Positions 2,721 through 56,651 of a stretch of DNA of 64,000 nt are shown here, in pieces. The notes beneath the pieces were generated by a model. It was not told the DNA's origin. It did no database searches and saw nothing but the letters and a program-made list of their open reading frames with translations. Source of the DNA: Bdellovibrionales bacterium (lineage in GTDB: Bacteria; Bdellovibrionota; Bdellovibrionia; Bdellovibrionales; UBA1609); NCBI GenBank assembly GCA_041690295.1, contig JAWLHR010000011.1:1-64000 (forward strand), given 5' to 3'. Within the stretch, counting starts at the first letter, position 1. The number at the start of each line of letters is the position of its first letter. Position numbers and translations under genes: made by a program.

Positions 2721-4685
2721 CTACATGCTGGAAAAACACTGAACATAATAAACACGACCCTGAGTGTCGACCGCCACACCAACGCCGCTTGATTTATAAA
2801 CAGAATTTAACAGGTTGTTGCGATGCGGTTCCGAACTCATCCATAAATTCACGATGTTGGCCGGATTGCTTCCGCCGCGAGCAATGTTTTCACCGGCGTA
2901 TCCGGATAAACCAACAGCGATCGCACGCGTCCGAAAATCACCGTGCGTCGGACTTTCATGGGATAAGAAATTGTTGGTCGCCATATCTTCCGTATGATTT
3001 TGCGCCAATTGCACGCACGCATCGGAAACCTTCAACGGACTGCGACCATACCGGGCCCGCATCTGATTGATACCTTGGAATACCTGACAGGCCGGCGCAT
3101 TCATACCACCGCATCCCGGTTGGGGTGTCGGTCCAGGTTGAGGAGACGGAGTCGGTGAAGGCGATGGACCGGGTGACGGTGAAGGACTCGGTGAAGGTGA
3201 TGGGCTTGGCGACGGAGAAGGTGACGGCGACGGACTCGGCGACGGAGAAGGTGACGGCGAGTTCCCCGGATATTTTGAATTGATCACCTGAGCCAGCATT
3301 CGCAGATTCAAACGATTTCCGCTATTGAACACGGAAGCCAATCGCGAATCTTTGACGGAGCCTTCTTTCAATATCTGTTCAACCAGTGCCGGCGTCGGAT
3401 TCACTCCGCGAGCTTTTAAAAGTCCGAAAGCCAGACCAGCGGCACCCGCCACGATCGGAGTGGCCATGGACGTTCCATCCATATTTCCGTAGCTGCCGTT
3501 CATAAGTGTGGAGAGAATCCCCGAACCCGGTGAACCGAGATCCACGTAGGTGGTGCTGTAATTGGAAAAGCTGCTTCGACTTCCGCTTGAAGTCAGCGCA
3601 CCAATGGACAACGCTCCATTGATGGAAGCGGCATAAGATGCCGGGCTCACCCAATTCGATGAGGTTAATTGAGTGTTTTCATTACCGGCGGCGATGACAA
3701 CGGTCGCGCCTTTGGCCACCGCATTGGCGACCGCGTTTCCGAAAGCCGCGTTTTTACCGGGACCACCCAAGCTCAATGAAATCACATTGGCGCCGTTTTG
3801 CGCGGCCCAGTTAATCCCGTTCACGACGGACTCGGACGAACCCGAACCACTCCGCGAAAGGACTTTCACCGCCATGATCTTCGCCCGCTGACCCATGGTT
3901 CCGGCGATGCCGACGCCGTTATTGCTGACGCCCGCGGCAAGACCCGCGCAATGGGTGCCGTGGCCGGCGTCGTCCATGGGATCATAGTCGTTATTAATGA
4001 AGTCGCGGCCATAACCATTCGGGCCGCGCCACATGTTGGCTTTGAGGTCTTGGTGATTGTAATTCACCCCGGTGTCGACGATGGCGATGATCACATCGTC
4101 TTTGATTCCGTTGGTGCCATAAAACGTATCATATCCGGCCGCGGCCTCGATGAACTGCATGGCCCATTGGCGGGAGTAATTCGGATCATTCGGTACGGCG
4201 ATGGCGTGAACATCCGAGTCGTTGGCGACCTGCACGACACATTCATCCGCCGCCGCTTTTTCTTCAAGCTCGGCGAGATCCATGTCGTCGGTCAATGTGA
4301 AGGCGTAAGCCTGTTGTTCCAACTCACGAGTCCGAAGAGCGGAAACTTCGGCGGAGAGACCTTGATGGGCCCCACGCCGCTCGTAACATTCATTGTCCAC
4401 GATGGCGAGAAGCCGTGAGCCTCTTTGCAGTCGCACGTCGTTGCGACGGGCCTTCGCGGAATATCCACTCATCACACCCTCAGGTGAGACGGCGGGCTTT
4501 CCCTGATCCGCCAGAATATCAAAATCCAATTCCACTTTTGCTGATTCGAGAAGCGTGGCTCCGCCGCCCGAAGCACTTTCAGGCAATTCCCATTTCGCCG
4601 TCTCAAAACCATACGGCGAACAGCCGGCCATCGCCACGCTTAGAAAAATCGATATCCATTTTCGCGATTGTTTCCCACACAACAC
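2721..4685 (-). CDS. Lipoprotein S8 (subtilisin-like) protease fused via Ser-Pro linker to a CAP/SCP domain
   Basis: Lipobox MAGC; catalytic motifs IVDTG, GHGTHCAG, GTSMATP; C-terminal 'HTEDMATNNFLSH', 'GENIA', 'WMSSEPHRNNLL' (CAP). Confidence 0.92.
   Translation of the reverse strand: MLCGKQSRKWISIFLSVAMAGCSPYGFETAKWELPESASGGGATLLESAKVELDFDILADQGKPAVSPEGVMSGYSAKARRNDVRLQRGSRLLAIVDNECYERRGAHQGLSAEVSALRTRELEQQAYAFTLTDDMDLAELEEKAAADECVVQVANDSDVHAIAVPNDPNYSRQWAMQFIEAAAGYDTFYGTNGIKDDVIIAIVDTGVNYNHQDLKANMWRGPNGYGRDFINNDYDPMDDAGHGTHCAGLAAGVSNNGVGIAGTMGQRAKIMAVKVLSRSGSGSSESVVNGINWAAQNGANVISLSLGGPGKNAAFGNAVANAVAKGATVVIAAGNENTQLTSSNWVSPASYAASINGALSIGALTSSGSRSSFSNYSTTYVDLGSPGSGILSTLMNGSYGNMDGTSMATPIVAGAAGLAFGLLKARGVNPTPALVEQILKEGSVKDSRLASVFNSGNRLNLRMLAQVINSKYPGNSPSPSPSPSPSPSPSPSPSPSPSPSPSPSPGPSPSPTPSPQPGPTPQPGCGGMNAPACQVFQGINQMRARYGRSPLKVSDACVQLAQNHTEDMATNNFLSHESPTHGDFRTRAIAVGLSGYAGENIARGGSNPANIVNLWMSSEPHRNNLLNSVYKSSGVGVAVDTQGRVYYVQCFSSM
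3115..3262 (-). repeat. Coding (Ser-Pro)n low-complexity linker
   Basis: Translates as SPSPSP...PGPSPSPTPSPQP with varied synonymous codons. Confidence 0.9.
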
Positions 4686-4830
4686 TTGAATCCCCCTCGT
4701 AACGCGGGGGAAATGTGCAACCTCGATGCAAGGCGAGCGACAAAGGGCTAGCTCAAGTCTTAAGACTTTTGTCGAATGAAATGCGGGTGATTAAGGTTTC
4801 GACTGTCTGAAGAAAAATTGTCTGGACGTG

Positions 4831-28229: not shown

Positions 28230-30686
28230 CTAGCGTCTCCGACCTTTCGCCTCGGGGCGGGCGGTGAGAGGGTCTTCAGGCCAGGAATGTTTGGGGTAGC
28301 GGGCGCGGAGTTCTTTGCGGACTTCGACGTAACCGGTGCGCCAGAAATTACCAAGGTCGGACGTGACTTGGACCGGGCGGAAATTTGGACCGAGCAAGCG
28401 GAAAGTCAAAGGCACGCGACCGAACACGAGGCTCGGTCCCTCGCGCAAACCAAAAACCTCTTGCAAGCGAACGTCCACGAACGCTGAATGCATCTCCGAG
28501 TAATCGATCTTGTGACGAAACCCCGAGGGCGCCAGCCAATCCGCCGGCACTTCGCGGTTCAACACCGCCATCGCTTCCGAACCAAGAACAGTGGCAAAAA
28601 TCCCAACCAAGTCGCCGGATAAAACCTGCTCGATGCTCGTGCAACCGTAACCCGCCATGCGCAAGGCTTCGCGGATTTTCTCTTCGCCAAAAAGCTCGGC
28701 GGAACCCGGATCATGATGAGCTAAAAACTTCCAACGCCGCACCAGCGATCCAAGTCCCGCATGACGCTCCACCAGCTGATCCCAGCGCCGCCAAAGCTCT
28801 TCACCCATTAACTCGCTCACCTGGTCGGCCGCCACTTCCGTTAACGTGGGACGGTCGATCGGTAAATCGAGAATAAAACGACAACGCCGGCCGAAGAACC
28901 GCTCCTTCTCCTCGTCAAAATAAACATCTTCGCGCGTTTCCACACGATCGCCGAGATGACGAAGCAGAAAATCTTTGTCGAAACCCGACGCCAAACTCAC
29001 CAGCGTATCGGCCTGACCGCCCTGATCCACGCCCTGCAACGCCACAAAGAATTCACTTCCGCGCGCCAAAGATTCGGGCACTAAACGCACACCGCGACCC
29101 CCGACCATCAATCCGCGGTCTCCGCTGTCGCGCCGGCGGCACAAGCGATCGAGCTGTGACAACAAAAGCACTTTTTGCACATCTTCCAACTCGGCCTCGC
29201 GGGAATCCGCCGCAACCAACCCGCTCAACTGCTCCGCACTCTGCCGAATCCAACCTCGCGCCCGACCCCGACGGGCCTCTTCAAGCCGAACCCATAAATC
29301 GCAATTCACTCCGCCGAATCGTTCATAATTTCCCGCCAACGAATCCCGTTCATTCAAGATGGCGCAAATCCAAGCCGCGGTCTGACCGACTCCCAGCTCT
29401 TCACCTTTCGCCAAAATCGCCCCTAACCGGGGCGGCAAAGGAAAATCCGCGAGACGCCGGCCGAAGTTCGTGATCCGATGATCCTGACCGATCGCCCCCA
29501 AGCTCATCAAAAATCGTCGGGCAAAATCCAGCAAAGCCCCGGGCGGAGGATCAAACCACGAAAACGAACTGAAATTGGAAATCCCCATTTGCGAAAGCCA
29601 AAGCAACGCCTGACTCAAGTCCACACGCTGAACTTCAGGCACCGACTCTTCGGACTGAGTCACTTCTTCGTGGGGCGTCCACAATCGCAAACAAAGTCCG
29701 GGCCCAAGGCGGGCCGCGCGGCCCGCGCGCTGGCGGGCGCTGAAAAGAGAAATCCGTTCCAGCTCCAGGGCCGAAAATCCCGTGCGCAGATGACAGTGCA
29801 TAACTTTCGCAATCCCCGTGTCCACAACGGCATCCACACCGTCCACCGTCACCGAAGCTTCCGCCACGTTCGTCGCCAAAATGATCCGCCGCCGGCCGGA
29901 ACCGCCGCCACGCAAGACCTGATTCTGTTCGGCCAACGGCAAAGAACCATGAAGTGGAACACGATCGCCATCCAAGCCTTCGAGCTTTCCGCTCAACCGT
30001 TCGATCTCTCCCCGCCCCGGTAAAAACACAAGTACATCCCGCCGGGTACGATGAAAAACGTCTCGAACGGCGGAGGCCGCGCGACTGTAAAACTCCTCAT
30101 CGGTCCGCAACCGCAGCGGCTGATTCTGATGTTCAATGGTCAGCGGAAAGGTTTCGCCGGCGATATCCAAATGAACCGAATCGTCCAAATAAGACGTCAA
30201 TCTCTCCGCATTTAAAGTGGCCGACATGATCATAAGTTTCAAGGGCGAGCCCACCATCTGTTGCTCTTTGAGATAGGCCAGCGCCAGATCCTGATTCAAA
30301 TTCCTTTCGTGAAATTCGTCGATGACCACCAGATCCACGCCACGCAATTCGGGATCGTCCAGCAGTTTGCGCAGGAACAAGGCATCGGTCATGAAAATCA
30401 ACCGGGTCTTCGCGCTCACCCGCGACTCAAACCGAACCTGATAACCGGCCTCTTCGCCGACCTTCCAGCCGCGCTCTTCACACACACGATGACAAGCGGC
30501 CACCGCCGCTATCCGCCGCGGCTGCAAGACGAGAATCCGCCCGCTAAAAACACTCAGCATTTGCGGAGGCAATCGGGTCGTCTTTCCCGTACCGGGCGCA
30601 GCCGTGAGAATTAAATTTGAACATCCGCGAACCGCCGAAACGATCTCCGGCAACCGCGAATCTATGGGTAATGGAGTGAGATTCAC
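28230..30686 (-). CDS. hrpB: ATP-dependent helicase HrpB
   Basis: 'GTGKTT', 'DEFHER', 'MSAT', 'QRAGRAAR', C-terminal 'RYPKHSWPEDP'. Confidence 0.96.
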   Translation of the reverse strand: MNLTPLPIDSRLPEIVSAVRGCSNLILTAAPGTGKTTRLPPQMLSVFSGRILVLQPRRIAAVAACHRVCEERGWKVGEEAGYQVRFESRVSAKTRLIFMTDALFLRKLLDDPELRGVDLVVIDEFHERNLNQDLALAYLKEQQMVGSPLKLMIMSATLNAERLTSYLDDSVHLDIAGETFPLTIEHQNQPLRLRTDEEFYSRAASAVRDVFHRTRRDVLVFLPGRGEIERLSGKLEGLDGDRVPLHGSLPLAEQNQVLRGGGSGRRRIILATNVAEASVTVDGVDAVVDTGIAKVMHCHLRTGFSALELERISLFSARQRAGRAARLGPGLCLRLWTPHEEVTQSEESVPEVQRVDLSQALLWLSQMGISNFSSFSWFDPPPGALLDFARRFLMSLGAIGQDHRITNFGRRLADFPLPPRLGAILAKGEELGVGQTAAWICAILNERDSLAGNYERFGGVNCDLWVRLEEARRGRARGWIRQSAEQLSGLVAADSREAELEDVQKVLLLSQLDRLCRRRDSGDRGLMVGGRGVRLVPESLARGSEFFVALQGVDQGGQADTLVSLASGFDKDFLLRHLGDRVETREDVYFDEEKERFFGRRCRFILDLPIDRPTLTEVAADQVSELMGEELWRRWDQLVERHAGLGSLVRRWKFLAHHDPGSAELFGEEKIREALRMAGYGCTSIEQVLSGDLVGIFATVLGSEAMAVLNREVPADWLAPSGFRHKIDYSEMHSAFVDVRLQEVFGLREGPSLVFGRVPLTFRLLGPNFRPVQVTSDLGNFWRTGYVEVRKELRARYPKHSWPEDPLTARPEAKGRRR

Positions 30687-30735
30687 GCAAGAGAATTATG
30701 CAAAAGGAATGGAAGAAGACAAAGGAATAATCGCC

Positions 30736-30768
30736 AAAAACTCCCCGGAATTCCGAAGAACTCCGGGC
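30736..30768 (-). terminator. Intrinsic terminator of flagellin 1
   Basis: Minus strand CCCGGAGTTC-TTCG-GAATTCCGGG-GAG-TTTTT. Confidence 0.65.
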
Positions 30769-30823
30769 AGGTAGGCACCGCGGGAGCGGAGAACCTACTC
30801 CCGCGAAAACAATCTCAATTCAA

Positions 30824-31657
30824 TTAGCCGATCAACTTCAGCGCCAAGCTCGGCTGAGTGTTGGCCTGAGTCAAAATTCCCACCGAGGCGTTCAACAGGA
30901 TGTTATTGCGGGAAAGCTCGGCGGAACTTTGCGCGATGTCGGCATCCCGGATCCGCGAATTCGCGGCCGAGAAGTTTTCAACCGCCACACCCAGATTCTC
31001 GGTGGTGGAAACCAAACGGTTTTGGATCGCACCGAGAGTCGCGCGATGGCCGTTCACCATCCGTTGAGCGTCTTCGAGGACTTCAAGAGCCTCGCGGGCG
31101 CCGGCCTTGTCGGAAAAGTCGAAACCATCAATCCCTAAGGCGGCGGTTGTCGCGTTGATCTCCGAGGGAGAAAAACCAATTCGGTCCCGGAAATCATTAT
31201 TGTTAATGTCGATTTGGAAATCGAAGTGTTCGCCTTCACCGTTAATGAGCGTTGTTTTTCCGAAGCGGGTGGTTTGAGCGATACGTTCCGATTCCATTTT
31301 CAATTGTTGAATTTCTTTATCAATGAATGAGCGCTCCACATCACCGACTGTATCGGAGGCCGCCTGCACGGCGAGTTCCCGCATACGAGTCAAAATATTG
31401 GAGATCTCACCCAATCCGCCTTCCGCGACCTGCACCATGGAGATACCGTCGTTGGCGTTACGCTGAGCTTGCGCGTAACCGCGGATCGTCGACTTCAAAG
31501 CCTCACTGATCGACAGACCAGCGGCATCATCGGCCGCTTTGGTGATGCGGCTTCCAGAAGCCAACTGCGCGAAGCTTTTGTTGATTTCACGTTGTGTGAC
31601 ACCCATCGATCGTTGTGCATTGATCGAGGCCACGTTGGTACTGACTCTGAGTCCCAT
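30824..31657 (-). CDS. fliC: Flagellin 1 (277 aa, D0/D1 only)
   Basis: 'LASGSRITKAADDAAGLSI', 'NANDGISMVQVAEGGL', 'SRIRDADIA'. Confidence 0.97.
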   Translation of the reverse strand: MGLRVSTNVASINAQRSMGVTQREINKSFAQLASGSRITKAADDAAGLSISEALKSTIRGYAQAQRNANDGISMVQVAEGGLGEISNILTRMRELAVQAASDTVGDVERSFIDKEIQQLKMESERIAQTTRFGKTTLINGEGEHFDFQIDINNNDFRDRIGFSPSEINATTAALGIDGFDFSDKAGAREALEVLEDAQRMVNGHRATLGAIQNRLVSTTENLGVAVENFSAANSRIRDADIAQSSAELSRNNILLNASVGILTQANTQPSLALKLIG

Positions 31658-31833
31658 TTTGTTCTCCTTTTGCCCTCGCGGGGCGATGGTAAAAGAAGTC
31701 CCTTTCCCTTCCGCGCGAAACCGTACCTACTCAGTCGCACGCTGAAGAGCTCTAAAAATCCATGAGCTTGGGTTGATTGTTTTTGTTTTCCTCAACACCG
31801 GACCGGCTAGGTCCTGTGCTTCAGACGACAAGC

Positions 31834-31860
31834 TATTCGGCGAGTCGGGTGAAGGCTTAA
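31834..31860 (-). promoter_or_regulatory. sigma28 promoter, flagellin 1
   Basis: TTAA-N15-GCCGAATA; implies a ~170-nt leader. Confidence 0.75.
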
Positions 31861-32146
31861 GTCGCGTCCTGTGAATCTGGACGAAAGATGGAAAATTTCT
31901 GGACGATCGCCCTGGAATTCCCGACCTATCGCGGGATTCTTCAGGACGACGGACGAGTCTTAGGACGTTTCGGTTAAGACCTTGAGCACCTCACCCATGG
32001 GCGGTGCGGACCAACACCGAGTCGAGCCGCCTCCCATTAGTACCCCGAGGAACAAAGTTGCTCCCCGGGTAGGTCAGGTACCGCCGCGGAATTTCCGCGA
32101 CCGGGAGAGCAAAGGAGCAACTCTCCCGTTTTCAAAGTTCAAATCA

Positions 32147-32980
32147 TTATCCAATCAGCTTCAGCGCGGCCGCCGGCTGCATATTCGCTTGCGTCAACAC
32201 GCCGATGGAGGCGTTGAGCAAAACGTTGTTGCGCGCCAGTTCCGCCGAGCTTTGCGCCACGTCGGCATCGCGGACCCGTGAGTTCGCGGCCGAGAAGTTT
32301 TCGATCGCGACGCCGAGGTTTTCGGTGGTCGAGATCAATCGGTTTTGGATCGCGCCCAAATTCGCGCGGTATCCGTTCACCTGGCGCTGAGCATCTTCGA
32401 GAATTTCCAATGCCTCACGCGCGCCGTCTTTGGTCGAAAAATCGAATCCATCCACGCCAAGAGTGGCGATCGTGGCGTCTTGTTGGCTGGCATCGAACGA
32501 AATCCGGTCATTGAAGTCATCATTGTTGATGTCCACTTGGAAAGTGTACTCGGAACCGGTTCCGTCAAGCAGAGTTTGTGATCCCCAGCGAGTGGTTTTC
32601 GCGATACGTTCCATTTCATTTTTCAACTGTTGAACTTCTTTATCGATAAATCCCCGCTCGATCTCACCGACCGTGTCGGAAGCGGCCTGCACGCCCAATT
32701 CACGCATGCGGGTCAAAATGTTTGAGATCTCGGCGAGTCCGCCTTCGGAAACCTGAACCATCGAGATACCGTCGCTGGCGTTTCGTTGCGCCTGCGTGTA
32801 ACCGCGGATCGTGGATTTCAAGGTCTCACTGATCGAGAGACCGGCGGCATCGTCCGCGGCTTTCGTGATCCGCGAACCGGTGGCGAGCTGCGCGAAACTC
32901 TTGTTGATCTCGCGGCTCGATCCGCTCATCGCGCGTTGTGCGGCGATGGACGGGATATTTGTAGTAATTCTCAGACCCAT
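32147..32980 (-). CDS. fliC: Flagellin 2 (277 aa)
   Basis: Start MGLRITTN after AAGGAGG; close paralog of flagellin 1. Confidence 0.97.
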   Translation of the reverse strand: MGLRITTNIPSIAAQRAMSGSSREINKSFAQLATGSRITKAADDAAGLSISETLKSTIRGYTQAQRNASDGISMVQVSEGGLAEISNILTRMRELGVQAASDTVGEIERGFIDKEVQQLKNEMERIAKTTRWGSQTLLDGTGSEYTFQVDINNDDFNDRISFDASQQDATIATLGVDGFDFSTKDGAREALEILEDAQRQVNGYRANLGAIQNRLISTTENLGVAIENFSAANSRVRDADVAQSSAELARNNVLLNASIGVLTQANMQPAAALKLIG

Positions 32981-33203
32981 GGAGGTCCTCCTTTGCAGTT
33001 GAGGCGAACCATCGCCCGGCTCTCCCGACTCGAACCTACTCAAGTCCTAATGAGGAAAGCGACGCTTCCATGCGCTCTTGGGTTGAACACGTTGGAGCAG
33101 TAGATGAATTTAATGAACGCCAAAGCTTCAAGCGAGCATCTCACGGGCAGTCACTCCCGAAGGCGCTCTCACCTGGCGTGAACCCATTCACTGCACGCCT
33201 AAC

Positions 33204-33230
33204 CATTCGGCGAGGTCTGGGCGAACTAAA
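33204..33230 (-). promoter_or_regulatory. sigma28 promoter, flagellin 2
   Basis: TTTA-N15-GCCGAATG; implies a ~215-nt leader. Confidence 0.72.
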
Positions 33231-33334
33231 GTCTCGTCCAGTGAAACTGGACCATGGTCCGACCAAAACTGGACCTTCGATCGGGATTTTCACATGAAAT
33301 CAAATTTGTTTAATGACATCGTGTGTTCGGACTT

Positions 33335-34087
33335 TTATCGCCCGGACGAATGACTTTCAGACGTGGGTCCAAGAAGGTGTTCTTCACACGCGCGGGCGGC
33401 GAGCCAGAAATTGAGTTTAGCCCGCGCCCCGGAACTTAACGATTCCGGCCATTCAGGAACCAACTCTATGATTTTGAGGACTCCGCGAACCACCGATTCC
33501 GGTGTGCGGGCATCAATGGTTTTCACCAGTGAGTCGGGCTCACGAAAGCGCCTATACGCCCAGTCCATGACCAAGGCTTCGATTTCGTCCTTGAAGAGAG
33601 GATCCCGCTGCCTGAGGAGTTTCAATTGATAGAAATAGGAGAGACATTGTTTCGCACACCGCCCGATCAACGGCGGCGCGGATTCCGGATCGACATGGAT
33701 CACGGGAGCGCCAATGTGTTCAAGAATGGCCGTTATGGCCTCAATATGATTCTGCAGCCAAAGGAGAAAAACCAACTCACGCTCAAACGCCGGAGTGAAC
33801 ACGCCGTCTTCCAAAAAGCGCGCGAGGAATCGGATTTGGATCAAAGGATCGAGCGATCCACCTTCGGTCATCAAAATGCGTGTGAGATCGACATTATCAC
33901 GGACCCGGATTTCCGCCGGCACATCCAGGGATCGTCGCTTCTCCAGAAACTCGCGCAGGTTCTTGACCGCCGTCGCGGCGTTCCCCTCTCTGGCTTCACG
34001 AATGAGCTCGTTACCGAGGGCCGCAAGCCACACGGAAGCCCGCGACTGGGTGGAGGAGGAGAGAAGAAACCACAGCAAAAGTTCCAC
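33335..34087 (-). CDS. Hypothetical helical protein, possibly secreted
   Basis: 250-aa ORF divergent from the radical SAM gene; short hydrophobic N-terminus. Confidence 0.55.
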   Translation of the reverse strand: MELLLWFLLSSSTQSRASVWLAALGNELIREAREGNAATAVKNLREFLEKRRSLDVPAEIRVRDNVDLTRILMTEGGSLDPLIQIRFLARFLEDGVFTPAFERELVFLLWLQNHIEAITAILEHIGAPVIHVDPESAPPLIGRCAKQCLSYFYQLKLLRQRDPLFKDEIEALVMDWAYRRFREPDSLVKTIDARTPESVVRGVLKIIELVPEWPESLSSGARAKLNFWLAARACEEHLLGPTSESHSSGR

Positions 34088-34143
34088 AACGCGAGAAGCT
34101 GCAAGAGCTAAGCCAGGCTTTTTGTGTTATAGAATCGGCGTCT

Positions 34144-35178
34144 ATGAGCATAAAAGGGCGAGGCACGTCCACCAATCCATTCAATCGCTTTGATAAACAT
34201 CAAGTGAAACTTGACGATAGCGAACCGGCTGTCGCGCCCCGCACGGAGATCCTGCGCGACATCTCCCGCAGTATCGTCGCTGAGAACGACAGTCCCGACA
34301 TCGGGTTTCGTTATTCCATCAACCCCTATCGCGGATGTGAGCACGGCTGCGCCTATTGTTACGCCCGTCCCACTCACGAGTATCTCGGATTTTCCGCGGG
34401 ATTGGACTTCGAAACGAAAATCCTCGTTAAGGAAAATGCCCCGCAATTGCTGCGTGAAAAATTGATGTCAAGAAGCTGGAAACCTGAATTGATCGTGATC
34501 AGCGGCAACACGGACTGTTATCAACCGCTGGAACGAAAGTTCCGTCTCACGCGGGGACTTCTTGAAGTGCTGCTCGAGTTCCGTAATCCCGCGGGCTTGA
34601 TCACAAAAAATCACTTAATCACCAGGGATTTGGATCTCCTTTCTGAAATGGCGGCTTTGAACATCGTATCCACCACCATTTCCATCACCTCTCTCGATAA
34701 CGATCTGATCGCCGCGCTCGAACCGCGAACTTCGCGGCCGGCGGCTCGCCTTGAGGCGGTCGCGGCCCTCGCCCAAGCCGGCGTTCCGGTGCATGTGAAT
34801 GTGGCACCGGTCATTCCCGGCCTGAACGATCACGAGATTCCAAAAATCCTAAAAGCCGCGGCCGAGGCCGGCGCGAAAACCGCGGCCTTCACGCCGGTGC
34901 GATTGCCGCTCGCGGTTTTACCTATATTTACGGATTGGCTGGAGACTCACCGGCCACTGAGAAAAGACAAAGTTTTGAATGCGATTCGCGACGTGCGAAG
35001 GGGAAAACTGAATGATTCCAATTTTGGAACACGAATGCGTGGCGCGGGTCCGGTTTATGATCAGATCTCTCAGCTGTTTAAAATTCATTGCGCTAAATTA
35101 GGTTTGAATAAAGAAAAATCCAATCTCACCACCGAACATTTCCGGCGACCGAGCGATCAGCTTTCGTTTTTTGATTGA
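34144..35178 (+). CDS. Radical SAM protein (PA0069/Rv2578c, spore-photoproduct-lyase-like family)
   Basis: 'SINPYRGCEHGCAYCYARPTHEYLG..GLDFE', 'NTDCYQP', 'LEPRT', C-terminal 'QLSFF'. Confidence 0.92.
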   Translation: MSIKGRGTSTNPFNRFDKHQVKLDDSEPAVAPRTEILRDISRSIVAENDSPDIGFRYSINPYRGCEHGCAYCYARPTHEYLGFSAGLDFETKILVKENAPQLLREKLMSRSWKPELIVISGNTDCYQPLERKFRLTRGLLEVLLEFRNPAGLITKNHLITRDLDLLSEMAALNIVSTTISITSLDNDLIAALEPRTSRPAARLEAVAALAQAGVPVHVNVAPVIPGLNDHEIPKILKAAAEAGAKTAAFTPVRLPLAVLPIFTDWLETHRPLRKDKVLNAIRDVRRGKLNDSNFGTRMRGAGPVYDQISQLFKIHCAKLGLNKEKSNLTTEHFRRPSDQLSFFD

Positions 35179-35190
35179 GAGTGCGCCCGG

Positions 35191-35226
35191 AAAAAAACCC
35201 CGGGGCGTGTGGGACGACCCCAGGGC
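35191..35226 (-). terminator. Intrinsic terminator of flagellin 3
   Basis: Minus strand CCCTGGGG-loop-CCCCGGGG-TTTTTTT. Confidence 0.75.
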
Positions 35227-35334
35227 GGGCTTAATTCAGGCGGCGATTGTCTGTGGGCGTCGCCGCCCTAATAAGGGACCATGATTCCAGCCGGTGGCGC
35301 GAGGGGCACCACCGGCCGAACTTAAATTCTTTGA

Positions 35335-36165
35335 TTAACCGATCAATTTGAGAGCCGAAGCCCCGTTCTGATTGGCTTGGGCCAGAACCCCGACCGATGC
35401 GGCCTGGAGAATTTGCGCCGAAGTCATCTCGGAGGTTTCGTACGCGATGTCCGCGTCAGAGATACGAGATTTCGCGGCGGTCAGGTTTTCGTTCTGAATG
35501 TCGAGGTTACTCGTGGTCATCTGCAACCGGCTTTGAACCGCACCGAAGTCAGCGCGCATCTTACCGATTTTAACCAACGCTTCGTCCACCGCGCTCAGGG
35601 TATCCCGGGCGGAATCTTTGTCGGCGATGCCGACTCCATCAATCCCGAGAGTGCTGGTCGTGGCGTCCGCCTCGATTTTGTAACGGATCACGTTTTCTTC
35701 TTCATCGGCGAAGGGTCCGACATGGTATTCGAATTCCTCACCGTTTCCATCGAGCAATGCTTTGTTACCGAATCGGGTGGATCGGGCGATACGATCGGAC
35801 TCGGCCACGAGCTGTTGCGCTTCCTGATCGAGGAACTCACGTTCCACGTCACTGACCGTATCCGATGCGGCTTGCACGCCCAATTCACGCAAACGGATCA
35901 AGATATTTGAAATCTCATTGAGTCCGCCTTCCGACACCTGAATCAATGATTGCGCGTTGAAGGCGTTGTTGCGCGCGGCTTTAATACCGGCCAACTGACC
36001 GCGGATGTTTTCAGACACCGCGAGTCCCGCGGCGTCGTCCGCGGCTTTTACGATACGCGAACCAGACGCGAGAGCCTGTTGCGCGTGTTCCAAACGGGAT
36101 TGCTGTTTAGACAACACCCGGTGCGCCGACACAGCGGCGATATTTGTATTGATCCTTAAGCCCAT
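35335..36165 (-). CDS. fliC: Flagellin 3 (276 aa)
   Basis: 'MGLRINTN', 'SGSRIVKAADDAAGL', 'SRISDAD'; TAAGGAGG RBS. Confidence 0.97.
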   Translation of the reverse strand: MGLRINTNIAAVSAHRVLSKQQSRLEHAQQALASGSRIVKAADDAAGLAVSENIRGQLAGIKAARNNAFNAQSLIQVSEGGLNEISNILIRLRELGVQAASDTVSDVEREFLDQEAQQLVAESDRIARSTRFGNKALLDGNGEEFEYHVGPFADEEENVIRYKIEADATTSTLGIDGVGIADKDSARDTLSAVDEALVKIGKMRADFGAVQSRLQMTTSNLDIQNENLTAAKSRISDADIAYETSEMTSAQILQAASVGVLAQANQNGASALKLIG

Positions 36166-36401
36166 TGTGGCCTCCTTACTTGCTTGGCCCAGATTCCGTC
36201 GAGCCGCTGCTCAGATCGCCCGCCCACAGTCGTCCATCGGCGACGGCGAAAAGAACAGGTCGTCCCTGTCGTTTAAGTTTTTAGTTGTCGTTGGGAGGCC
36301 TCCGGTACAAAGGGGTGACTGACCCTTTGATCCGGAGTTCTTGAGGCAAGGTCACTGCTGAAATGAACCTGCCCGAGAGTGCTCCAACGTGTTCGCTATA
36401 C

Positions 36402-36428
36402 TTCTCGGCTTAGGTCCAGGAAGCTTTA
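36402..36428 (-). promoter_or_regulatory. sigma28 promoter, flagellin 3
   Basis: TAAA-N15-GCCGAGAA; implies a ~230-nt leader. Confidence 0.85.
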
Positions 36429-36531
36429 GGCTTTGGTCTAGTCTAGGTAGGTATGCAGCGCGTCTAGTAATTGAATAGACTGATTAAACGATGCAAAAAA
36501 TTTTTTGCTCTGCGCATCACAACGCAGAGCA

Positions 36532-37362
36532 TTATGTTTCTAAAAGACGCATCGCTCGTCGCGAAGAAAGGTTTGATTGGGCCACCACGGAGATGGCGGC
36601 TTCTTGCACCAGCTGAGCTTGAGCCAGCTTGGCCACTTCATCAGCCATGTCCACGTCCACAATATGCGCGCGGGCCGTATCCAGGTTTTCACCTTGAACT
36701 TCAAGCGCGTTGATCGCGTATTGCAGTCGGCTTTGCATGGCGCCGAAGCTGGCGCGTGTGCCCGCCACTTTTGACATGGCATCGTCGATATATTCGAGCG
36801 CATCCAGCGCGTCGTCTTGATCGGCGATTTCCAAATCATCGATGTCTAAATTGCTGGCCGTGGTATTGGCGTCCAGACGAAACTTAATCACATTGTCTTC
36901 GCCTTTATAAGCGCCGACCTGGAATTCGAAATTCTCGCCTGAACCGGTAAGCATCTGTTTATTTCCGTAGCGGGTGGTTTTGGCGATTCGGTCGAATTCC
37001 GCCACTAATTGGGTGAATTCATCGTTAAGGAACTCTCGTTCTTCTTCACCCACCGTGTCCGAGGCGGAATACACCGCCAACTCACGTAAACGCACGAGAA
37101 TATTGTTTTGCTCATTAAGCCCACCCTCGGCCGTTTGAATCATGCCGATGGCCGCCTCGGCGTTAAATTTCGCTTGTTTAGTACCCGCATGTTGCGCGCG
37201 CAAGGATTCGGAAATGGCGAAACCCGCGGCATCATCACCGGCCTTCACAATCCGCGAACCAGAGGCAAGGGACGATAATGATTTATCGATGGTTTGTTGC
37301 GCTCGATTTAAGAACCGTCCCGCTTGCATGGGGACAATGGATGAGGCAATTCGAAAAGCCAC
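36532..37362 (-). CDS. fliC: Flagellin 4 (276 aa, divergent termini)
   Basis: 'LASGSRIVKAGDDAAGFAI', 'QTAEGGLNE'; GTG start after AAGGAGG. Confidence 0.95.
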   Translation of the reverse strand: MAFRIASSIVPMQAGRFLNRAQQTIDKSLSSLASGSRIVKAGDDAAGFAISESLRAQHAGTKQAKFNAEAAIGMIQTAEGGLNEQNNILVRLRELAVYSASDTVGEEEREFLNDEFTQLVAEFDRIAKTTRYGNKQMLTGSGENFEFQVGAYKGEDNVIKFRLDANTTASNLDIDDLEIADQDDALDALEYIDDAMSKVAGTRASFGAMQSRLQYAINALEVQGENLDTARAHIVDVDMADEVAKLAQAQLVQEAAISVVAQSNLSSRRAMRLLET

Positions 37363-37471
37363 GTGGGCACCCTCCTTCTCCCTGTTCCAAAGCCATGACC
37401 CCCGCCCAGCTTTGAATCAGAAAGTTTTAGCGCCCACAGACTTAAAAGGTTCATTTCAGCAGTTATGGAGC

Positions 37472-37498
37472 TTATCGACGCATCGAGTTATAACTTTA
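37472..37498 (-). promoter_or_regulatory. sigma28 promoter, flagellin 4
   Basis: TAAA-N15-GTCGATAA; implies a ~100-nt leader. Confidence 0.85.
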
Positions 37499-37532
37499 GG
37501 ATTTTTTTATGCGCCACGTTAATTTTATGGAA

Positions 37533-37844
37533 TTAGGCATAAATATCTAATACTTGGCCACTGTCATCGAGCCTTTTCAGGTTCTCTTGAGCCCGCAGAT
37601 AGGGGTGCGTGATTGGCTGGAACTTCGACACCCTCGGACGGTTTTTCTGCTCTTTTTCTTTGCTTTCTTTATGGATGAATCGTGCGAAACGAAGAAGCGC
37701 GTTCTGCGTTTCTTCGTCCAATGTTAACTGAGGTTGCTGCGGTGACGCCGCCGGTTCCACCTCTTTAGGTACAACCTTTAGCTTTTCACCTCTCTCCAGC
37801 TGCTGACCCGATGTCCTTATTAGATCGGCGCCTGAGTAAAGCAT
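37533..37844 (-). CDS. Small hypothetical protein
   Basis: Ends 'GQVLDIYA', a tail type seen on small flagellar-region proteins; start uncertain. Confidence 0.5.
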   Translation of the reverse strand: MLYSGADLIRTSGQQLERGEKLKVVPKEVEPAASPQQPQLTLDEETQNALLRFARFIHKESKEKEQKNRPRVSKFQPITHPYLRAQENLKRLDDSGQVLDIYA

Positions 37845-37988
37845 TACTACCAGCCTAGCAGGACTTTGGGTCAGTGACCGGGAAATTTTATGGAACGCGT
37901 TAGAGCCGTAAAATTACATCAGAAATCTGTATCAAAATAAAACATGGCCCTTCATTGCGCGCTCACTCGCCTTCGATAGAATGAGCGG

Positions 37989-39017
37989 ATGAAAAGCGCC
38001 CGCTTGCCGGTGATCGATCTGATACGGCTGTTTTCCTTTCTTGCGATCATCATCTTTCACACCAGCTTCACACTTTGGCCGGCGGCTCAATTTGATAGGG
38101 TGCCGGAGCCGAGCCTCTGGATCACACCACTGGAAACTTACGCGCGCGCCCTGAGTTTCAGCGGATTCACGGTTATTTTTCTTTCTTTTTTTCTGTTCGG
38201 CTTCAAAGCGGAATTGAAACAAAATTGGTTTAGACTATGGCTCTTGATGCTGGCCTTTTTCGCCCTGTGGAGATTGGGCGGCGATGACTTTCCTTATATA
38301 TGGGACATTTACCCCTACTTGCTCGTGGTGGTCGCGCTCTCAGCCCTCCTTCGCAATTGGCCGGGTTGGTTGCTGGCCATCCTGGGTGGAATTTTGACCA
38401 GTATTCCGTTTTGGCATTTCGAACCGCGACTGCAGCTGGTCGACTGGTTGAGCGGCCCGATTTTCGGAAACTGTCATCTCAACGATCTTGACGGTGATGA
38501 GTGGCCGCTTTTGCCCTGGATCGGTTACCCGATTTTCGCTTTCGGGATGGGGCGCTTGGCGCGGAAATACGAAAACAAATTAAAATCCATGTCTTTTGGC
38601 GAAATCGTATTTTGGTCGGCGGCATTGGGAATAAGCCTGAATCAAATCGGAGAATATTATGCGACTCCACTGGGCTATCGGTTCGGATGTTTTATCTTTC
38701 GCCGGCCGCCTCTAACGTTCTGGTCGCATCAAATCTGGATTATTTTTCTCGTCCGCCTGGGTTATACACGCGTGGTCAATACCTGGCTAACTCGCAACCG
38801 CTTGGTGACTTGGATCACACAGCGCCCGGTGAATCGGAAATTTTATTTGGCGTACTTTCTACATTACCCTTTTTGTCTGGTTTGGGCGGCGGGCGCATCG
38901 CATTTGAATCTGAACTTGCAACCATGGGTCTTCGCGGCCGGCGTGTTCGCTTGTGTCATCTGGGTTGAGTATTCAACGGTTGTCTTAAGTCGAATACTTC
39001 TAAATAATAAAAAATAG
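37989..39017 (+). CDS. Polytopic membrane protein, DUF1624/acyltransferase-3-like
   Basis: 'DLIRLFSFLAIIIFH', 'WPLLPWIGY', 'YLAYFLH'; many TM segments. Confidence 0.6.
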   Translation: MKSARLPVIDLIRLFSFLAIIIFHTSFTLWPAAQFDRVPEPSLWITPLETYARALSFSGFTVIFLSFFLFGFKAELKQNWFRLWLLMLAFFALWRLGGDDFPYIWDIYPYLLVVVALSALLRNWPGWLLAILGGILTSIPFWHFEPRLQLVDWLSGPIFGNCHLNDLDGDEWPLLPWIGYPIFAFGMGRLARKYENKLKSMSFGEIVFWSAALGISLNQIGEYYATPLGYRFGCFIFRRPPLTFWSHQIWIIFLVRLGYTRVVNTWLTRNRLVTWITQRPVNRKFYLAYFLHYPFCLVWAAGASHLNLNLQPWVFAAGVFACVIWVEYSTVVLSRILLNNKK

Positions 39018-55811: not shown

Positions 55812-56339
55812 TTAGGCCTCGACTTCAGGCGGGCGCTTCAGCTTGACGGCGACATCCGTGTAAACCGATTGGTTCTTGATGATGGCTCCGGGATTCTGCA
55901 CCACGCGCTGCTGCAGGCGGGTGAAAATCGGTTCGCGAATGGCCAATGAATTGTCCTGGAGAACCACTTGACGGGCCACTCGACTTTGCACGTGGATGAC
56001 AATCGGAGCCTTAAGGTTCGCCGTCATTTGAGTGGGATCGGACGGAATGGTGATGATCGAGAAAAACCGGATCCCTTCCGTCGACTTAAGTCCCATGATT
56101 TCCAGATCATGCTTGGTTAACTGCACCGTGTAGTTATTGGTGAACAGCTCCGGCTCAAGAAGCGGAAAAGCGATATTTGGGTCCTCACAACTTTGGAGCC
56201 AAGCGAAAATTTCATCGGTGGGGTCATCCAGCAGGACGAAGCGACGGAGTTCGTTGAAGCCCAATAGGCCTTCGGGAAAGTGAATAATGTCCTCTGACGT
56301 AATGGCCACCGCACCAAAACGGCTAGTTGAAATCACCAT
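55812..56339 (-). CDS. fliW: Flagellar assembly factor FliW
   Basis: 'FPEGLLGF', 'WLQS', 'TANLKAPIVI', 'QVVL'. Confidence 0.95.
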   Translation of the reverse strand: MVISTSRFGAVAITSEDIIHFPEGLLGFNELRRFVLLDDPTDEIFAWLQSCEDPNIAFPLLEPELFTNNYTVQLTKHDLEIMGLKSTEGIRFFSIITIPSDPTQMTANLKAPIVIHVQSRVARQVVLQDNSLAIREPIFTRLQQRVVQNPGAIIKNQSVYTDVAVKLKRPPEVEA

Positions 56340-56420
56340 TTCTTTCCCCCCCGGATCCAGGATGCCCCTAAAAAGGGGGACACTTCAAGATCTAATGAGG
56401 GTTAATAACGCGAAGCCGTG

Positions 56421-56651
56421 TTATTTGTTTTTAAGAAGCTCGGCGACCTGCTTAGCCCTGTCCGGATTGGCGGAGACGGATTCTTGGTTTTGATTCTGAA
56501 TCGCCAGGTAGACTTCCTCGCGGTGAATCTTGGTATCCTTGGGGGCCTCGATACCAAGCCTGACCTGTTTACCCTTTATCTGAACGACCCGAATTTTGAT
56601 ATGGTCATCGATCGCGATACTTTCGCCAAGTTTCCGGGTCAGAACCAACAT
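56421..56651 (-). CDS. csrA: Carbon storage regulator CsrA
   Basis: 'MLVLTRKLGESI', 'VRLGIEAP...IHREEVY'. Confidence 0.98.
   Translation of the reverse strand: MLVLTRKLGESIAIDDHIKIRVVQIKGKQVRLGIEAPKDTKIHREEVYLAIQNQNQESVSANPDRAKQVAELLKNK

Follow-up and report, generated by a model that had tools for sequence, protein, structure and literature searches.

How several flagellins expressed under one sigma factor come to be assembled in ordered blocks is an open question; in Bdellovibrio bacteriovorus the filament order FliC3-5-1-2-6 has been mapped, with no mechanism given (PMC2791853). The locus described here, which lies in a window of 64,000 nucleotides (the whole stretch of DNA analysed) from a Bdellovibrionales genome of 2.88 Mb and 99.89% completeness, raises the question of whether sister flagellin mRNAs base-pair with one another in trans through their 5′ leaders, and of what such pairing would control.

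Antisense blocks at the 5′ end of the flagellin-3 transcript

The minus strand carries all four flagellins of the window, and the genes and promoters relevant to the analysis are as follows.

30824..31657, minus strand: flagellin-1, whose leader has no site and serves as an internal negative control
32147..32980, minus strand: flagellin-2, 277 aa, FliC2 clade
33204..33231, minus strand: predicted sigma28-type promoter of flagellin-2, predicted +1 at 33196
35335..36165, minus strand: flagellin-3, 276 aa
36402..36429, minus strand: predicted sigma28-type promoter of flagellin-3 (−10 box 36402-36409), predicted +1 at 36394
36532..37362, minus strand: flagellin-4, 276 aa, GTG start, divergent clade
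37472..37499, minus strand: predicted sigma28-type promoter of flagellin-4, predicted +1 at 37464

Each predicted +1 is the eighth base past the −10 octamer, a spacing copied from the start reported as mapped for the Bd0606 promoter of B. bacteriovorus (PMC3627812). From synteny, length and C-terminus we infer that flagellin-3 is the orthologue of B. bacteriovorus FliC1. Its transcript start is referred to here as the hub. All three genes are co-oriented neighbors, with flagellin-4 and flagellin-2 at 1.2 and 3.2 kb from flagellin-3 and the partner sequences at 1.1 and 3.3 kb from the hub, respectively. The elements involved in pairing are listed below.

36284..36394, minus strand: hub module, comprising a free 5′ toehold, a closing helix P1, a hairpin H1 (with block C) and a hairpin H2
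36380..36394, minus strand: block A (+1..+15), antisense to the flagellin-2 leader and made up of the toehold together with the 5′ strand of P1
33085..33099, minus strand: flagellin-2 leader site for block A (+98..+112)
36354..36370, minus strand: block C, antisense to the first flagellin-4 mRNA nucleotides, and forming the 5′ arm plus the loop of H1 in relatives
37447..37464, minus strand: flagellin-4 transcript 5′ end, which is complementary to block C
36369..36379, minus strand: middle block, matching 33140-33150 at 10/11 and pairing in cis inside H1
36315..36322, minus strand: H2 loop (8 nt), 7 nt of which are complementary to the flagellin-2 leader hairpin loop
33148..33155, minus strand: flagellin-2 leader hairpin loop (+42..+49), the kissing partner of H2

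The original prediction, that the 5′ end of the flagellin-3 mRNA is antisense to the leaders of two siblings, proved correct for both of its long blocks. Specifically, 36380-36394 is an exact 15-nt reverse complement of 33085-33099, and 36354-36370 is an exact 17-nt reverse complement of 37447-37463. Neither block is a dispersed repeat, as each occurs at only two places in the genome, and the claim that such matches exceed chance is borne out by dinucleotide shuffling of the four flanks (330 nt each): among 3000 shuffles, the longest perfect complement was at least 15 nt in 6 cases and 17 nt in none. With respect to position, block A begins at the predicted flagellin-3 +1 (36394) and the flagellin-4 block at the predicted +2; the predicted +1 sites thus coincide with or adjoin the blocks, and none lies downstream of them.

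A third partner was rejected within the source genome, where no perfect complement longer than 10 nt was found between any other pair of different leaders, and neither flagellin-1 nor flagellin-7 leaders gave a pairing signal. The cross-genome search for a third partner consisted of the flagellin-7 leaders (n=22-28), with the leaders of the C1 flagellin pair left out, and reached as far as nt 85 in the leaders of flagellin-3 and flagellin-4 and nt 125 in the flagellin-2 leader; apart from four windows that lacked valid energies owing to short leaders, 25-nt windows showed no cognate advantage, the best reaching 79/2000. Palindromes located 3′ of the flagellin genes were also considered as REP-like repeats, which was ruled out by their single-copy occurrence.

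Compensatory change in the leader contacts

Orthologous leaders retain the complementarity, and do so through compensatory changes. The helix between block A and the flagellin-2 leader is kept in 38 of 41 loci, and in the three loci without it a block A site lies 87-102 nt ahead of another flagellin-2-clade gene, which accounts for these misses. Pairing of block C with the flagellin-4 5′ end is retained in 44 of 46 genomes from the Bdellovibrionales (43 of 45 at 11-16 of 16 positions, together with L027 at 17 nt). Cognate duplexes averaged −33.3 kcal/mol against −22.9 kcal/mol for non-cognate ones (n=45), a difference reached in 0 of 20000 permutations, although this and the other permutation counts given here overstate significance because the genomes are related. 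Three genomes (L072, L076 and L077, with hand-set offsets) maintain the block C fit with entirely different letters. The two genomes that have lost block C (L026 and L031) have diverged flagellin-4 5′ ends, and in six genomes of genus g38 for which no flagellin-4 is listed, block C is gone with block A and the loop contact described below retained.

Parsimony reconstruction gave 46 double-sided changes, 7 G-U changes and 4 breaking changes (n=37), and 20, 6 and 5, respectively (n=38), for totals of 66 double-sided changes versus 9 breaks. Internal non-canonical helix positions, read on the transcript strand, comprise 25 G-U, 1 A-C and 2 other mismatches. Moreover, in L030, L070, G024 and G041 the partner sits on the opposite DNA strand and the fit is still present. 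The G-U bias and the survival of the fit through gene inversion indicate RNA pairing rather than DNA symmetry, and together with the compensatory changes they support the original proposal of base-pairing in trans between flagellin mRNAs. We consider it very probable that leader pairing in trans is real.

The second contact with the flagellin-2 leader was found to differ from the one first proposed. The 10/11 match of the middle block to 33140-33150 is present as claimed, but it is not conserved: the other 37 of 38 genomes score 6-8/11, as shuffled sequences do, and even 10/11 was reached in 1 of 40 shuffles. The middle block was accordingly rejected as a conserved contact. In its place, the comparison identifies a covarying 7-nt loop-loop kiss between 36315-36322 and 33148-33155. 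A G-C to A-U swap in both RNAs is seen in 5 of 38 genomes and represents three independent events, and two more double changes and three joint losses were recorded in the same set; genome G126 carries the identical swap. At the level of sequence comparison, three contacts are thereby demonstrated to be kept by compensatory change, namely block A with the flagellin-2 leader, the H2 loop with the flagellin-2 leader loop, and block C with the flagellin-4 5′ end.

Beyond these loci, a pattern combining the promoter with block A matches 54 of 401 genomes of the phylum. Among 20 matches inspected, 11 lie at or near a flagellin-3 gene; the other 9, of which 7 are outside the order and 2 in genus g38, have no flagellin within 16-17 kb. 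Genomes L035 and L036 have no hub module, and G063 was left out of the genome comparison.

A candidate switch at the flagellin-3 ribosome-binding site

The hub module is predicted to be highly structured, with a folding z score of −4.5 and no equally stable fold among 200 shuffles. P1 is predicted in all 52 modules when these are folded alone, and the six nucleotides at the hub 5′ end are predicted to be unpaired at a mean of 0.91; the consensus structure rests on sequence-only alignments. In the source genome no U-tract follows the module on its 3′ side. One sequencing run examined for RNA evidence yielded five short contig pieces, none of which covered the module. Two further elements link this fold to translation of flagellin-3 itself.

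36290..36300, minus strand: 3′ strand of P1, doubling as an anti-Shine-Dalgarno strand for flagellin-3
36169..36175, minus strand: flagellin-3 Shine-Dalgarno (SD) region, the alternative partner of the P1 3′ strand

In the comparison, the P1 3′ strand covaries both with block A and with the flagellin-3 SD region, and these two mutually exclusive helices are each cognate-favored (n=57). Pairing of the anti-SD with its own SD scored −13.5 versus −11.4 (0 of 10000 permutations, n=52), and is weak in L057, L058 and L063. Against the SDs of four other flagellin classes, which served as controls, the anti-SD showed no cognate advantage, and an action in trans on other flagellins was rejected. The flagellin-3 SD is predicted to be unpaired at 0.41 with P1 enforced versus 0.08 with block A occupied, and holding P1 gave greater SD opening in 41 of 51 leaders and smaller opening in none. 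When the complete leader is folded without constraints, however, SD pairing already stands at 0.86 and rises to 0.91 after masking of block A, with a shift above 0.2 in only 5 of 59 leaders. The clearest predicted effect of pairing is on the ribosome-binding site of the hub mRNA and not on those of its partners.

These predictions suggest a displacement switch. In this view, the flagellin-3 transcript opens with a folded antisense module of ~110 nt, through which it pairs in trans with the mRNAs of two sister flagellins. During RNA synthesis P1 would close first and keep the anti-SD away, such that flagellin-3 is translated; because the SD is mostly paired in the unconstrained whole-leader fold, this ON state must be a kinetic, co-transcriptional one. 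The flagellin-2 mRNA could then dock, using both the kissing loops and the unpaired 5′ toehold, and strip block A from P1, and the freed anti-SD would cover the SD and stop flagellin-3 translation. For flagellin-4, the single-stranded mRNA 5′ end may enter H1 by way of the loop, and probably acts on stability or as a second input. As to whether shut-off of flagellin-3 translation by flagellin-2 mRNA is the main output, our judgment is evenly divided. A likely purpose would be a hand-over from one flagellin block to the next along the filament, in which FliC1 is followed by FliC2 (PMC2791853). In its fullest form, the proposal is a chaperone-free circuit in which the mRNA of the next flagellin silences the previous one by kissing and toehold displacement, so that the block order of the tapered Bdellovibrio filament is partly encoded in pairing between mRNAs, and the 5′ end of flagellin-4 mRNA provides the module with a second input; we put this forward tentatively, and with more doubt than the switch alone.

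Published data on B. bacteriovorus bear on the direction of control. One transcriptome study describes APsRNA3 of strain HD100, a 128-nt attack-phase RNA with a FliA promoter and a start 276 nt before fliC1, and names no target, partner or mechanism for it (PMC3627812). Hub leaders of the six-flagellin genomes of genus g38 measure 277-278 nt where a promoter was called (2 of 6), and judging from position the hub module is probably the same element. Attack-phase values given there are 14,726 RPKM for the hub RNA, 11,984 for fliC1 and 1,932 for fliC2 (PMC3627812). The hub RNA and fliC1 thus stand six- to eightfold above fliC2, which suits an action of the hub on fliC2 better than the reverse, and the calling of APsRNA3 as a separate RNA counts against the switch, as a module released from the mRNA would no longer have an SD of its own to act on.

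Control might accordingly run in the opposite direction, with the abundant module, either as a released ~110-130-nt sRNA or as part of the mRNA, regulating the rarer flagellin-2 and flagellin-4 mRNAs. The duplex could be marked for cleavage, the flagellin-4 5′ end shielded, or CsrA access remodeled. A discrete, FliA-driven APsRNA3 several-fold above fliC2 mRNA fits this reading (PMC3627812), as does the status of FliC2 as a minor filament component (PMC2791853). The very first nucleotides of the flagellin-4 mRNA would be covered, reminiscent of the protective contact described for hly-prsA2 (PMC8722363), and in the source genome, which carries csrA and fliW, the flagellin-2 site is followed 14 nt downstream by an ANGGA loop. 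The partner sites are, however, ~100 nt upstream of the start codons, and masking them left predicted ribosome-site access flat (0.34 to 0.33 for flagellin-4, n=40; 0.49 to 0.49 for flagellin-2, n=38), leading us to reject an effect on the partners' ribosome sites. The anti-SD/SD covariation is also left unexplained, and we regard this direction as rather unlikely to be the main one, yet both directions can coexist.

The remaining readings fare worse. Because blocks A and C are separate, a single hub could bind both partners and tether three flagellin mRNAs in one complex for co-localized polar translation and export, with amounts little changed; CsrA-FliW control of polar flagellin mRNA localization has been reported in Campylobacter (PMC4894983). 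This is improbable given that flagellins are laid down in consecutive blocks and not mixed (PMC2791853), and a tether has no need of a covarying anti-SD. Pairing in cis inside long read-through transcripts running from flagellin-4 through flagellin-3 to flagellin-2 would suit the co-oriented genes of the window, but every gene has its own predicted sigma28 promoter with the block at +1, distances elsewhere are long (flagellin-2 at ~16 and ~21 kb from the hub in two genomes, flagellin-4 at up to 8.8 kb), and the idea is contradicted by the four genomes with an opposite-strand partner, which makes it highly improbable. On the DNA of the window the blocks are inverted repeats, and could in principle be inversion sites, operator half-sites, relics of mobile elements or products of chance. 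The G-U excess on the transcript strand, the conversion of the blocks into direct repeats at inverted loci, the complete turnover of letters with persistence of fit, the presence of just two copies in the source genome and the silent flagellin-1 and flagellin-7 leaders leave a DNA-level origin the faintest prospect of all.

Taken together, matching mutations that preserve the fit point to an undescribed RNA-to-RNA coordination of flagellum building blocks in predatory Bdellovibrio-like bacteria. The hub supplies exact nucleotides for mutation and rescue in a culturable model, and its pairing would assign targets to the orphan RNA APsRNA3.

Comparison with known RNA systems

In CopA/CopT, RNAI/RNAII and synthetic toehold switches, a loop-loop kiss comes first, after which a single-stranded 5′ tail is invaded and the RNA changes conformation. 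The plasmid antisense RNAs among these are encoded in cis on the opposite strand and are complementary by construction. The hub resembles the CopA type in its covarying 7-nt loops and predicted unpaired 5′ tail, and differs in that its partners are separate genes whose complementarity is held by selection. The sigma28-dependent sRNAs of E. coli are Hfq-dependent. They share with the hub a UTR origin and a place in the sigma28 regulon, and tune flagellar synthesis (PMC10578931), but do not make up a network in which the leaders of flagellin paralogues pair with each other.

Closer in target is FlaX of Vibrio cholerae, an RNA from a flagellin transcript that is described as having several pairing sites in the leader of a second flagellin mRNA and as altering filament composition (PMC11879080). 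Unlike the hub, FlaX is cut from a 3′ UTR, is bound by ProQ and blocks the ribosome site of its target (PMC11879080). The hub pairs 5′ leader to 5′ leader through long, perfect helices that lie well away from the start codons of the partners, its partner sites lying ~100 nt upstream rather than over ribosome-binding sites, and its predicted switch acts on the hub itself. Neither PF17209 (Hfq) nor PF04352 (ProQ) had a match in the source genome at its 99.89% completeness. In Listeria monocytogenes, hly-prsA2 likewise involves trans pairing of one mRNA to the 5′ end of a second mRNA, as a single 3′ UTR to 5′ UTR pair between unrelated genes (PMC8722363). The hub shares with it conserved complementarity between two transcripts, and differs as a three-member network among paralogues. 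Rfam gave three matches in positions 30000-38500, all far under the gathering cut-off and none on the hub module, and the literature searched contained no leader-to-leader flagellin pairing system. Pairing of mRNA leaders in trans that is held by covariation across a whole order, if coupled to a switch that works by strand displacement, would give synthetic toehold devices a rare counterpart in nature.

Exact complements at predicted flagellin transcript starts

The 2.88-Mb genome containing the window, whose named relatives are Bdellovibrionales, carries seven flagellin genes, and the protein tree across the fetched loci resolves three clades, namely f3, f4 and f1/f2 (numbered by flagellin). 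The genes concerned in the window are as follows.

31657, minus strand, flagellin-1 (f1)
32980, minus strand, flagellin-2 (f2)
33335-34087, 250-aa ORF without a Pfam match, between f3 and f2
34144-35178, radical SAM gene (PF04055), between f3 and f2
36165, minus strand, flagellin-3 (f3)
37362, minus strand, flagellin-4 (f4)

The f3-f2 interval varies in length among relatives. The window also holds fliW and csrA, adjacent at 55926-56651 and ~19 kb from the flagellin cluster; neither Hfq nor ProQ was found in our search.

Two complements had been described, block A (36380-36394 at the f3 5′ end with 33085-33099 in the f2 leader, 15 nt) and block C (36354-36370 in the f3 leader with 37447-37463 at the f4 5′ end, 17 nt). 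Both proved exact, and each occurs in the genome only at its two places. When the four flanks were shuffled 3000 times, 15 nt was reached in six shuffles and 17 nt in none. With +1 set by the mapped Bd0606 promoter, prediction also agrees with the proposed placement at transcript starts: f3 +1 is the first base of block A, and f4 +2 that of the f4 block. The contig of locus L013 has the predicted f3 +1 as its very first base, possibly by chance. Rfam has no family over the region.

Covariation of the pairings

Of 40 relatives searched, 35 gave a flagellin match; 40 regions from these were fetched together with 41 named loci, and duplicates were removed by identical protein. For block C, 45 genomes had both promoters called, with L027 held apart. 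The mean f3/f4 duplex energy was −33.3 kcal/mol for cognate vs −22.9 for swapped leaders (0 of 20000 permutations, a count inflated by kinship among genomes, an effect that does not extend to the proportion of double vs breaking changes). Pairing at 11-16 positions of an ungapped 16-nt register was found in 43 of the 45, the exceptions being L026 and L031; L027, with a longer leader, has a 17-nt helix, giving 44/46 overall. L072, L076 and L077 keep the helix with wholly different letters (offsets set by hand). On the f3 tree, parsimony counted 46 changes as double-sided, 7 as wobble and 4 as breaking (n = 37, leaving out these three diverged loci, the two losses, L034 and L079).

Block A has a site of at least 10/15 in an f1/f2-clade leader at 38 of 41 loci (best paralogue taken); in the other three the site is present too, 87-102 nt ahead of an f2-clade gene that lay beyond the fetched region. 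Here parsimony gave 20 double-sided, 6 wobble and 5 breaking changes (n = 38). Thus, complementarity in orthologous leaders, which the original prediction had put forward for checking, is kept, with double-sided changes exceeding breaks in both helices. Two f2-clade paralogues each carry a block A site in L070 and in G024 (C2:274159 and 278143), which suggests that the f3 leader can have duplicate targets. In L031 (6627) that leader is down to 61 nt and retains nothing but block A and the strand it pairs with in cis; a search ahead of the flagellins listed in that genome found no block A site.

A second f2 contact had been assigned to 36369-36379, which is not conserved across genomes. The conserved one joins two 8-nt hairpin loops, at 36315-36322 in f3 and at 33148-33155 in f2. 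Among 38 genomes, this loop-loop kiss uses the common pair in 24, a double-sided G-C to A-U swap in 5 (3 tree events) and other double changes in 2; both loops are absent in 3, and 4 score partially. Three partial scores are pattern-window artefacts (the swap is present in L024, and the common pair in both L044 and L078), and in the fourth, L019, only the f3 loop is missing. L019 combines this loss with an f2 gene (~3900-4721) whose alignment is split between two frames, apparently through a frameshift or an assembly error.

Read on the transcript strand, isolated non-canonical positions within the helices comprise 25 G-U, 1 A-C and 2 others. An inverted partner gene in L030, L070, G024 and G041 makes the DNA repeats direct, while the transcripts remain complementary; pairing in cis within a read-through transcript is therefore excluded at those loci. 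The f1 and f7 leaders, as negative controls, gave no pairing signal, and no third partner turned up among the leaders compared. These sequence patterns indicate that the complementarity acts at the level of RNA and not DNA. The pairing system is very probably real, and it is order-wide among the genomes searched.

The f3 module and its possible action

The first 111 nt of the f3 transcript fold with a z of −4.5 into a predicted module comprising a free 5′ tail, a closing helix P1, and hairpins H1 (carrying block C) and H2 (carrying the kissing loop). P1, in which block A pairs with a pyrimidine strand at +95..+105, is predicted in 52/52 modules folded alone (from 59, omitting two that lack the element and five whose automatic pick was doubtful). 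Its 3′ strand also complements the f3 SD, and prefers its own block A and SD over those of other genomes (n = 57); no such preference was seen when the SDs of f2, f4, f7 or f1-like non-partner genes were tested instead.

We favor a co-transcriptional switch in f3. P1 would close first, leaving f3 translatable; f2 mRNA would then kiss H2 and invade from the toehold, releasing the anti-SD strand and closing the f3 SD. The covariation is established by comparing genomes; we infer the timing, direction and outcome of the switch. The predicted unpaired fraction of the f3 SD is 0.41 with P1 enforced vs 0.08 with block A removed, and enforcing P1 leaves the SD more open in 41/51 and less open in none. 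Counting against the switch, the SD is already 0.86 paired in the unconstrained full leader. The main rival, that an abundant module acts on rarer partner mRNAs, draws support from hub RNA six- to eightfold above fliC2 RNA in B. bacteriovorus (PMC3627812), and may operate alongside the switch; site masking left predicted access to the f2 and f4 start regions unaltered. In the f4 leader, a predicted stem (37363-37370 with 37430-37438) covers the interval from SD to start codon, which suggests translational damping of f4.

Further elements and known systems

Two further motifs recur in the window.

~33235-33255 and ~31865-31885, GTCYAG-N4-6-CWVGAC element, also at f1/f2-clade and f3 promoters of relatives
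33034-33041, 31725-31732, 36222-36228 and 37430-37438, WGTRGGB word

Of 71 f1/f2-clade promoters, 50 have the inverted element directly 5′ of the -35 box. Mean half-sites per promoter are 2.3-2.6 for f1/f2 and f3 vs 0.04 for f4 and 0.09 for background, making it a candidate transcription-regulator site separating flagellin classes. WGTRGGB occurs in 37/45 f4, 22/38 f2 and 31/58 f3 leaders (raw counts), sits in a predicted hairpin loop in f2, and is possibly a protein-binding site. The long, conserved f7 leader (L082, G000:C2 upstream of 177762; L085-L113) averages 4.5 ANGGA words (n = 28) vs 0.16 in f4; we take these to be the CsrA motif, and the leader is likely a CsrA target or sponge. Outside the order, seven genomes of genus g78 (family f22) have a near-identical 25-nt word fitting the promoter-plus-block-A pattern, with no flagellin near it in the four loci fetched (L114, L115, L117, L118).

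L078, titled uncultured Bdellovibrio sp., has the gene row f4, f3, Y1 transposase, f2; the HD100 order is fliC1, putative transposase, fliC2. Among six genus-g38 genomes, f3 ends like published Bd0604 in three and f2 like Bd0606 in two. All six keep block A pairing of 11-13 nt, with several compensatory changes in G150, and the kiss is kept in the five whose f2 leader was examined; block C is absent from the six, and f4 is not listed in them. APsRNA3 (PMC3627812) is a 128-nt RNA with a FliA promoter, starting 276 nt before fliC1. Position, gene order and the published protein ends together suggest that f3 is FliC1, f2 belongs to the FliC2 clade and the module is APsRNA3. In the filament, FliC2 directly follows FliC1 (PMC2791853).

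In the literature searched, which had most subscription journals outside its coverage, no account of flagellin leaders pairing with one another was found, and one of the papers listed used APsRNA in the Bdellovibrio sense. The system is a variant of trans RNA-RNA regulation, and the closest cases to the f3 module pairing in this literature are FlaX (PMC11879080) and hly-prsA2 (PMC8722363).
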